This document shows positions 28,212 through 28,430 of a stretch of DNA of 64,000 bases, one piece after another. Position 1 is the first letter of the stretch; every line of letters begins with the position of its first letter. The stretch comes from Syntrophales bacterium. GTDB lineage: Bacteria > Desulfobacterota > Syntrophia > Syntrophales > UBA4778. Location: the NCBI GenBank assembly GCA_028712885.1, contig JAQTPK010000003.1:11129-75128 (forward strand). Direction: 5' to 3'. Made by a program: the position numbers and the translations under genes. The notes under the pieces are model-generated. The model was not told the DNA's origin. It ran no database searches and worked only from the letters and a program-made list of their open reading frames with translations.

Positions 28212-28430
28212 GAAGCTGAGAAGCTGAGAGGCTGAGAAAAAAAATGAAGATCCGAAGTTGCGAAGATGCGAGGATAGGCGGCGGGGGCTTCTCACCGCTG
28301 AGGGGCTGATAAGGTGAGGATTTGACCTGTGACGGAATAAAACCCGTCTCAAAGTCCTTTCCCGCCTTTCCCGCATTTCGCGCTTTTCCCGCCTAAATTG
28401 ACGCAACAGACGCAATAGACGCGAAACGCA
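28212..28430. repeat. Composite array of degenerate tandem word repeats (modules S1, S4, S2, S3)
   Basis: S1 gaagctgagaagctgagaggctgaga (28212-28237); S4 gaagttgcgaagatgcgaggatagg (28254-28278); S2 cctttcccgcctttcccgcatttcgcgcttttcccgcc (28356-28393); S3 gacgcaacagacgcaatagacgcgaaacgca (28400-28430). The same modules recur at 46491-46646 and elsewhere. Confidence 0.85.

Follow-up and report, generated by a model that had tools for sequence, protein, structure and literature searches.

The window analysed here is a 64-kb stretch of ordinary chromosome from an uncultured Syntrophales bacterium. It carries a beta-oxidation operon, two-component systems, ahcY-metK, panCD, ilvB, queD-folE2 (queD at 44944..45327, plus strand), an RND efflux system, and znuABC (znuA at 60725..61600), with minus-strand genes at 35.8-44.7 kb and 49.6-60.5 kb. 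The gene map was drawn from naive open reading frames (ORFs) corrected using gene calls on public contigs. The spacers between these genes hold short tandem arrays, each built of degenerate words of 7-9 nucleotides (nt), which are sorted into families S1 to S11 and form the subject of this analysis. The focal spacer (28190-28631) separates the gene of a GAF-PAS histidine kinase (26528..28189) from that of a PAS histidine kinase and contains, in this order, an S1 array, S4 words, a small hairpin, an S2 array, an S3 array, a repeat of about 105 nt resembling a miniature inverted-repeat transposable element (MITE), and S9 words (Table 1).

Every locus named in an earlier prediction, made from the letters of the window, bears the word array ascribed to it. 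Using Tandem Repeats Finder (TRF), 29 tandem arrays with a period of 6-10 and at least 2.5 copies were detected, against 1.10±1.14 (maximum 5) in 100 dinucleotide-preserving shuffles, and 16 arrays reached a TRF score of at least 40, against 0.02 in the shuffles. Matches to two-word patterns likewise exceeded expectation for S1 (8 vs 0.06), S2 (14 vs 0.92), and S5 (10 vs 0.10). Periods of 7 nt (about 10 arrays), 8 nt (9 arrays), and 9 nt (at least 5 arrays) were found by TRF, and between 17 and 64 kb the arrays make up about 16% of intergenic bases. Most of the TRF arrays are intergenic or at gene termini (24/29); the remaining five, at 14439, 16552, 36056, 37478, and 62785, are intragenic, with scores of 30-33 and units of 6 or 9 nt. 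By manual count of spacers of at least 28 nt, about 17 of about 24 carry one array or more, whereas none is present in 18154-18260, 40153-40266, 47683-47848, or any spacer in 1-17 kb, a correction to the earlier prediction. The stretch 28150-28502 is base-for-base identical across three separate SRA assemblies, and further arrays are identical in an NCBI metagenome-assembled genome (MAG) and additional assemblies. The arrays are real, almost confined to spacers, and lineage-specific.

Coding overlap in the window is seen at the znuA N-terminus (60734-60768) and the acrB 3′ end (49644-49668), and beyond it, on contig L153, at the scpA 3′ end, in scpB, and at the mltA N-terminus (6100-6130, 6750-6782, and 13511-13540). 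With units of 7 or 8 nt, one unit gained or lost at any of these coding sites, including those of znuA and acrB, would shift the frame; no such gain or loss was seen in coding-end arrays among the strains compared. The original prediction had also described many recurring word types, each strongly asymmetric in purines and pyrimidines. Many families are indeed reused across spacers, with S11 occurring at one window locus only, and the asymmetry applies to S1, S2, S4, S6, S9, and S11, but not to S8, S7, or S10, while S5 is rich in C and A rather than in pyrimidines.

The reuse extends beyond single words. The order of S4 words at 28253-28281 is repeated at 59719-59747 with 93% identity, and S2 at 28359-28392 is 88% identical to the reverse complement of 57636-57669. 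Such sharing of words and of the order of variant words across loci indicates that arrays at different loci are copies of common ancestors. Composite modules recur as well: module A, consisting of S1, a hairpin CGGAATAAA..CTCAAAG, S2, and S3, is present at 28297-28430 and 46472-46620, and module B, a unit of about 100 nt consisting of S2 in reverse form, a conserved core, and S7, occupies 57636-57745 and a non-orthologous spacer of the sister species introduced below. In addition, an S6 array accompanies the 105-nt MITE-like repeat in two inverted copies, the mirror copy of the unit at 43904-44018 lying at 46219-46334. As short multi-array modules thus occur in non-orthologous spacers, some copy mechanism exists besides slippage. 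The S4 words of the focal spacer (GCGAAGAT/GCGAGGAT, 28246-28281) resemble the reverse complement of its S2 words (GCGGGAAAG/GCGCGAAAT, 28356-28394), and the two arrays pair with each other in the predicted fold of the spacer, so that some word families may be related by descent rather than be independent.

In eight spacers of the window, arrays of the same family form inverted pairs. While the words do occur in both orientations, as originally described, the orientation is not random but is set by the adjacent stop or start codon, and the claim that arrays abut these codons is confirmed at many spacers. Within 60 nt of a stop, 15 of 19 arrays have more G than C on the coding strand (mean skew +0.37), and within 60 nt of a start, 7 of 9 have more C than G (mean skew -0.30); the difference in skew (Mann-Whitney p ~0.02) comes from one 64-kb window with few loci and non-independent family members. 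S4, S5, and S9 switch the sign of their skew between stop and start contexts. In all skewed co-directional spacers, of which the window has five, a G-rich array precedes a C-rich one along the direction of transcription, and the panC->panD spacer of the sister species shows the same order, as do two spacers of an unrelated MAG (L017). An origin of the orientation rule in stop codons, with forms rich in stops tolerated at gene 3′ ends and open forms at 5′ ends, was rejected, since closed frames are alike in sense and antisense (8 vs 6 near stops and 2 vs 1 near starts).

Comparison with related genomes shows how the arrays change. The sister species (locus L024) has a queD 89% identical to that of the window and is fully syntenic with it; a second strain of the sister species (L026) is 99.2% identical to the first, and a distant syntenic relative (L149) has a queD of 68% identity. 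In the sister, the corresponding spacers hold arrays of the same families that differ in their word variants and in copy number. For example, in the queD->folE2 spacer, ACCCAAC/ACCCATT x6.7 in the window corresponds to ACCTATT x9.4, and after the HD gene about 10 S7 words correspond to 2-4, the number varying between sister strains. An S4 array is also present in the sister at the ilvB stop. In the ahcY->response-regulator spacer, both window arms consist of GTYYCAR words and both sister arms of GTCCAGA; the arms have 8 heptamers in common within each species and 0 between species, which indicates that paired arms co-evolve. In the HD->ilvB spacer, an ilvB leader of about 215 nt is nearly identical between the species, and the array part beside it is unalignable, which suggests that array sequence is only weakly constrained. 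At the S10 site, the counterpart in the sister of the two expanded window arms is no more than a 20-bp palindrome, aaatctcaaatttgagattt, and the arms may have grown from such a short seed. No arrays were found in any corresponding spacer of the distant relative, pointing to an expansion confined to the clade that unites the window species with its sister; the nearest GTDB representatives at folE2, Syntrophales MAGs of 76% identity, also lack arrays at the folE2 locus.

Word number varies between closely related strains as well, a comparison that the original prediction had proposed. Over 3.5 kb, the two sister strains show just two indels relative to each other. One, in a CAGGCAT array, is +7 nt, exactly one word, and the other, in an AACGCCT array, is +14 nt, exactly two words; such whole-word indels are a signature of replication slippage. 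Among near-identical strains of the window species, no whole-unit variants were seen.

Taken together, the evidence leans, if only modestly, towards the arrays being long-unit simple-sequence repeats of 7-9 nt, of the kind known as short tandemly repeated repetitive (STRR) sequences or long simple sequence repeats (LSSRs), expanded in one Syntrophales lineage and driven by slippage. A few seed sequences would have been copied between spacers by non-allelic recombination, by gene conversion, or by hitch-hiking on small MITE-like elements, and each seed would then lengthen and shorten by slippage until it reached functional sequence, which would explain why arrays abut stop and start codons. Paired arms might be kept alike by template switching between them or by weak selection for pairing. 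Orientation would be filtered by selection, G-rich arrays being tolerated on the coding strand after stops and C-rich ones before starts, so that copies would persist where, and in the orientation in which, harm is small. Most copies probably fill spacers as neutral or selfish sequence, and single ones may have incidental effects on mRNA structure or on the initiation or termination of translation. The mechanism of copying between spacers, the cause of the orientation bias, and the neutrality are the parts of this account that we infer.

Several points weigh against a slippage-driven expansion. Slippage alone cannot account for about ten specific words recurring in many unrelated spacers, and no transposase is encoded in the window to account for the copying. 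The orientation rule could reflect function rather than tolerance, as could the constant G-rich-then-C-rich order and the co-evolution of arms, and the small and non-independent sample behind the orientation statistics counts on the same side. Finally, 28 substitutions separate the window from a strain of its species at 99.55% identity (L154), and not one of them falls in an array; hypermutability of the arrays by substitution is therefore rejected.

Table 1 Word arrays and associated repeats of the focal spacer (first seven rows) and of the rest of the window
Feature	Position	Strand	Context
S1 array, AGAAGCTG x3.5	28211..28238	+	22 nt past GAF-PAS kinase stop; coding strand G-rich
S4 array, GAAGATGC then GAGGATAG	28246..28281	+	
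Module A	28297..28430	+	S1-like pair 28297-28310, hairpin GACGGAATAAAACCCGTC, CTCAAAG, S2, S3
S2 array in module A, CCTTTCCCG x4.3	28356-28394	+	
S3 array in module A, GACGCAACA x2.6-3	28400-28430	+	
MITE-like structured dispersed repeat	28453..28557	+	not a word array, sits among arrays
S9 words, CCCTTGAA, C-rich	28557..28575	+	57 nt upstream of PAS kinase start
TTCCCCCTG x2.6	19702..19724	+	8 nt upstream of hpaB-like gene start (- strand)
S3-type array	26063..26095	+	divergent spacer
S8 inverted pair	32769-32795 and 32848-32871	+	past stop of response regulator-HD (RR-HD) gene, ahead of intrinsic terminator
S8 inverted pair	arms 36818-36841, 37027-37051	.	both ends of ahcY->response-regulator spacer
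S8 array, AGTTCTG x3.6	40654..40678	+	fills 39-nt panC->panD spacer
Short S8 words	41727..41745	+	
S4 array, GCGAA..GAGGATAGG on coding (-) strand	41943..41980	-	1 nt past ilvB stop
Truncated inverted MITE copy with attached S6 array	43904-43988 (MITE), 43990-44018 (S6)	-	
S7 array, CCTGACG/TCTAACG, ~10 words	44020..44093	+	4 nt from HD gene stop
S10 inverted pair, AAATCCC and GGGATTT	44684-44740 and 44775-44836	.	divergent HD/queD spacer
S5 inverted pair	45317..45398	+	queD->folE2 spacer
S2 reverse form and S6 reverse form	46183-46208 and 46219-46246	+	directly 3′ of folE2 stop
MITE copy with internal 24-nt tandem repeat x2.7	46250..46421	+	
S5, S1, S2, S3 with further S2	46444-46470, 46490-46508, 46546-46575, 46579-46645	+	
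S1 array	49407..49427	+	overlaps MFS/spermidine-synthase gene stop
S1 array	49634..49668	-	provides acrB's last codons and stop
S9 pair and S11	53955-53975, 53995-54029 and 54031-54056	.	OEP->MFP spacer
S8 array, ACTCGGG x5.7	55497..55541	+	3 nt past ubiB stop
S5, S2, conserved core, S7	57584-57628, 57636-57669, core, 57700-57745	-	
S4 inverted pair	59719..59826	.	dsbD->redoxin spacer
S4 array x4.4	60734..60768	-	within znuA N-terminal coding region
S8 words	63185..63207	+	fill 28-nt convergent spacer

Several of the arrays in Table 1 sit very close to the neighbouring genes. One S8 arm of the ahcY->response-regulator spacer lies 3 nt from the start and the other 3 nt from the stop, and in the queD->folE2 spacer, the G-rich S5 arm (45317-45344) overlaps the queD stop, and the C-rich arm (45348-45398), which is the array of 6.7 words compared above, ends 14 nt before the folE2 start. 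The arrays at 46444..46645 sit in the convergent spacer between folE2 and a ytfJ-like gene and include the second copy of module A. The S1 arrays at 49407 and 49634 form an inverted pair across a convergent spacer, and in the S4 pair of the dsbD->redoxin spacer, read on the coding (minus) strand, the G-rich arm comes after the stop and the C-rich one before the start.

The main rival to slippage-driven expansion, though an unlikely one, is a post-transcriptional and thus regulatory role. Here, the arrays would be cis-acting RNA elements in polycistronic mRNAs, with the arm at a stop and the arm at the next start pairing with each other or binding a protein such as ribosomal protein S1, Csp, or CsrA, and they would tune initiation, coupling, mRNA stability, or Rho access. 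The placement of arms 1-8 nt from stops and 3-40 nt from starts is in keeping with such a role, as are the constant G-rich-then-C-rich order in the window, the sister, and L017, and the co-evolution of arms. Moreover, a Shine-Dalgarno sequence is missing beside the array at folE2 and at the response-regulator gene, as has likewise been noted for the TAACTGA repeats discussed below, and heptamer repeats altered recF/recO reporter expression in Nostoc. The folds of the spacers are divided: dsbD->redoxin folds better than shuffles (z = -3.4), whereas the focal spacer (z = -1.7) and queD->folE2 (z = -1.3) are not significantly structured. If the arms paired as RNA, an advantage from G:U pairs on the sense strand might be seen, but the predicted pairing was better on the sense strand for 3 pairs, worse for 5, and equal for the rest, which lends no specific support to structure at the RNA level. 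Convergent and divergent spacers hold pairs too, and the ahcY->response-regulator pair spans an intrinsic terminator and a likely promoter, so that the two arms would not share a transcript. A sequence-specific binder is disfavoured by the different words of the sister at the same site, and syntenic relatives do without arrays altogether. Searches for other RNA or transcription signals gave little: at the gathering score, Rfam 15 found only tRNA-Met in the window and nothing for the arrays or the MITE-like repeat, and at E<=1 no overlap with arrays except a sub-threshold chance match to CRISPR-DR46 (44732-44770) and terminator-like matches (32838-32952). A role of the arrays as operon terminators or promoters was rejected, as canonical intrinsic terminators are separate from them and promoter- and terminator-like sites are not enriched over shuffles.

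It is more doubtful that the arrays are the ends or footprints of tiny non-autonomous mobile elements, similar to MITEs, to paired repetitive extragenic palindromic (REP) sequences forming hairpins (REPINs), or to short dispersed repeats (SDRs), with the tandem words serving as binding sites or scars of an enzyme encoded elsewhere. The burst is lineage-specific, the same modules lie at several sites, with module B in different spacers of the two species, and S6 travels with the MITE-like repeat in two inverted copies, all of which would suit mobility, and the inverted pairs look like terminal inverted repeats. In Geobacter metallireducens, insertion sequence elements are described at a fixed distance from such sites (PMC2700814), and no arrays lie in the apparently recent low-GC islet described below. 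However, about ten unrelated families would need several specific enzymes or one that is blind to sequence, and the sequence between arms is unique, with ordinary terminators and promoters conserved in the sister. No transposase, including any REP-associated tyrosine transposase (RAYT), was found among the proteins encoded in the 64-kb window, and slippage explains the unit-wise indels without an enzyme.

It could also be speculated, with rather little confidence, that the arrays are working parts of a clade-specific system, which might take either of two forms. In the first, a sequence-independent copy-and-paste mechanism, an enzyme encoded elsewhere in the genome may seed short modules into spacers. 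In the second, a combinatorial 'word code', the G-rich 3′ ends of mRNAs may pair with C-rich 5′ ends of the same or other mRNAs; S4, for example, comes after the kinase, ilvB, and dsbD genes and before those of redoxin, znuA, and mltA. If true, such a code would tie together the expression of genes that are not linked. Either form would accord with the G-rich-then-C-rich polarity, with the co-evolution of arms, and with the relocation of module B.

A further idea, and a very improbable one, is that a nucleoid-associated or global regulatory protein binds the arrays as double-stranded DNA, in which case paired sites would permit looping. Paired sites on opposite strands at variable distance are also described in the G. 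metallireducens passages compared, the S10 locus of the sister is an operator-like 20-bp palindrome in a divergent promoter region, and two HU-family genes lie just outside the window, though HU genes are ubiquitous and no evidence in themselves. Periods of 7-9 bp would place successive words on different faces of the helix, however, and a single protein is hard to reconcile with about ten different words that are degenerate within arrays, change between sister species at the same site, and run into coding sequence. Lastly, although short-read contigs tend to end inside the 105-nt repeat or an array, assembly or chimeric artefacts, which the original prediction had allowed for, are excluded to practical certainty by identical arrays in five or more independent assemblies built from different sequencing runs, as well as in NCBI MAGs, and by homologous arrays at the same positions in the sister.

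Slippage-driven expansion of simple repeats thus remains the preferred reading, and several further elements of the region lie beside the arrays. The MITE-like repeat (28453-28557, 46250-46421, and, inverted and truncated, 43904-43988) has a long outer stem, GTCATTTCGA...TCGAAATGAC, around hairpins, and a predicted RNA fold with z = -5.5. It is absent from the orthologous spacers of the sister species, and three short-read assemblies break within it. A second type of hairpin repeat (..CATTCCGGCGRAAGCCGGAATCCAG.., GGATGCCGG..CCGGCATGAC) is found at 41817-41900 and 49530-49612 and also at about 7530-7580 of the array-free L149. Upstream of ilvB (43694-43900, minus strand), a 21-aa leader peptide, MKAISILRIVVVVVTPSTGAG (ORF 43770..43835), is followed by an intrinsic terminator (43713-43744) directly ahead of the ilvB Shine-Dalgarno sequence; as judged from this layout, leader and terminator constitute a predicted classical branched-chain amino acid attenuator. 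The leader region, nearly identical in the sister species, has no Rfam match.

Differences between strains and flanks also point to recombination and acquisition. Against the MAG GCA_028716425.1 (L023), identity in 44629-45261 falls abruptly from 99.9% to 97.4%, and the intervening S10 spacer is only about 75-80% identical, with indels. This divergence probably marks a tract acquired by recombination with a diverged strain, and a second such tract was noted at 22462-22680 in L001. The S10 arms themselves are 75-80% identical between the window and this MAG, and concerted evolution of the arms between the two strains was rejected, all four arms being equally diverged (72-80%). The left flank of the window, known from a contig of the same species at 99.9% (L156), is a low-GC stretch (1-7395, 41-44%) that has a Cro/CI-like ORF, a fragment like a tRNA 3′ end, and six large spacers, and is probably a recently acquired islet. 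Its spacers contain no arrays of 7-9-mers, only one of a 10-mer, GAATAGACGG x3.7, and this array-free flank fits arrays accumulating in resident DNA. Within the window, the tRNA-Met 3′ end and its terminator are duplicated (32900-32943 vs 35674-35717, 93% identical) and flank a 2.7-kb islet (32944-35690) with a HepT/MntA toxin-antitoxin pair and an AbiEi-like antitoxin, which has the look of a small element that inserted at the tRNA. A 1.67-kb segment (46180-47848) with an array-rich spacer, a MITE copy, and ytfJ-like and DUF2953 genes is absent from the sister, in which the MFS/spermidine-synthase gene begins 1 nt after folE2.

Arrays of this architecture are not restricted to the window and its relatives. 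A metagenome scan for (RRGCTGAG)x3 returned at least 120 stretches with GC contents of 35-73%, none related to the window among the matches listed, so that S1-like arrays appear widespread. The orientation of S1 among the matches listed, by crude ORF calling, was 18-22 vs 14-17. Unrelated MAGs fetched via folE2 also carry heptamer arrays, at 7395-7525 and 8368-8450 of L017, 71-146 of L018, and 4825-4855 and 7342-7374 of L020. In L017, folE2 is directly flanked by inverted pairs in the G-rich-then-C-rich order, made of GGGTTCA/TGAACCC and GCGGGTT/AACCCGC, and the same architecture is thus present in other lineages.

The value of the locus lies in the comparison it offers. One lineage packs about ten families into most spacers, its sister shows turnover, and a syntenic relative is array-free, which amounts to a natural before-and-after series that could be used to date the expansion, to find a triggering gene gain or loss, and to test selection on orientation and pairing. 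There are practical consequences too, as arrays and MITE break short-read assemblies of these MAGs and yield spurious ORFs and wrong start codons. An example is the 420-aa plus-strand ORF 46577..47839 beside the richest spacer, which was rejected as a candidate enzyme because it is spurious, the real genes being the ytfJ-like and DUF2953 genes on the opposite strand.

Tandem intergenic word families with units of 7-9 bases have been recognised since the cyanobacterial STRR sequences of 1990. In Calothrix and Nostoc, STRRs comprise several heptamer families, tandem and dispersed in non-coding DNA in both orientations. The window resembles them in having several dispersed tandem families in non-coding DNA; STRRs, however, are cyanobacterial and strictly heptameric, whereas the window has periods of 7, 8, and 9 in a Syntrophales host. 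The STRR consensus words do not occur in the window, and only S8 CCCGAGT comes near STRR1 CCCCAGT, with one mismatch per unit. The arrays are unlike classical REP sequences, bacterial interspersed mosaic elements (BIMEs), CRISPR arrays, or enterobacterial repetitive intergenic consensus (ERIC) sequences, as had been claimed from the start. While REP sequences, BIMEs, and REPINs are also abundant intergenic repeats, and REPs also form inverted pairs between genes, a REP unit spans 20-40 nt, is imperfectly palindromic, and is linked to a RAYT, whereas the words of the window are 7-9 nt long and non-palindromic. CRISPR repeats are 23-50 nt long with unique spacers, and the words here are contiguous.

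The LSSR survey (Mrazek et al. 2007), as summarised in PMC4679880, describes units of 5-11 nt, heptamers being commonest, for which polymerase slippage was proposed, and reports that units other than multiples of three are kept out of genes and that LSSRs are phylogenetically scattered. The window agrees on three points: tandem units of 5-11 nt exceed chance, units that are not a multiple of three are largely kept out of coding sequence, and the sister strains differ by whole units. In the summary available there, LSSR is a statistical category, from which neither dispersed families nor composite modules nor inverted pairing follow. The TAACTGA repeats of marine Beggiatoaceae (MacGregor 2015, PMC4679880) lie directly upstream of starts in fixed orientation, often replacing the Shine-Dalgarno sequence. 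They share with the window short heptamer arrays at starts and a patchy taxonomic distribution, but they are a single word, mostly before starts, unpaired and with no stop-associated form, and TAACTGA arrays were not found in the window.

The GGGAATC and GGGGA(T/C)T heptamers of Xanthomonas and Nostoc (Rehm et al. 2015, PMC4692102) lie 0-50 bp from stops on the coding strand and from starts on the non-coding strand. In Xanthomonas, they form inverted pairs that are conserved in position and variable in length (PMC4692102), and in Nostoc, deletion of a heptamer repeat changed recF/recO reporter output. The window shares with them intergenic heptamers near stops and starts, inverted pairs, and a position that is kept while length varies, as well as the orientation bias, by which the G-rich strand is coding when it follows a stop and non-coding when it precedes a start. 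Unlike the window, these genomes have one G3-containing family with G-quadruplex potential. Only some families of the window have a G3/C3 tract, namely S9 (GGGTTCAA), the S8 array at 55497 (GGGACTC), and, in complement, S5 and S2; S1, S3, S4, S6, S7, and S11 have none, so a potential for G-quadruplexes in every unit is not a general property of the arrays.

The closest likeness in kind is with G. metallireducens (Aklujkar et al. 2009, PMC2700814), for which the passages compared describe the tandem families GTTGCTYN x4, TCTCCGTS[Y] x3, MTYCTGA x5, and GGACCGG x4. These consist of 3-5 tandem 7-9-mers, mostly in opposite-strand pairs, and are absent from G. sulfurreducens, and IHF/HU paralogues were proposed there as binders (PMC2700814). 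The consensus words GTTGCTYN and MTYCTGA have 0 matches in the window, so the likeness is one of kind and not of sequence family. The window differs in belonging to a different phylum-level lineage, in its often longer arrays (up to about 10 words) joined into composite modules, and in the G/C orientation rule at stops and starts, of which these passages make no mention. It agrees in the co-existence of several families, mostly intergenic and sometimes in genes, in opposite-strand pairs of tandem 7-9-nt words at variable distance within a spacer, and in a close relative without them. The novelty implied by the original prediction therefore does not hold for the phenomenon, as intergenic tandem families of hepta-, octa-, and nonanucleotides have already been published for G. 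metallireducens, Xanthomonas, Nostoc, and Beggiatoaceae and in the LSSR survey: the kind is already known, and the words themselves are new.

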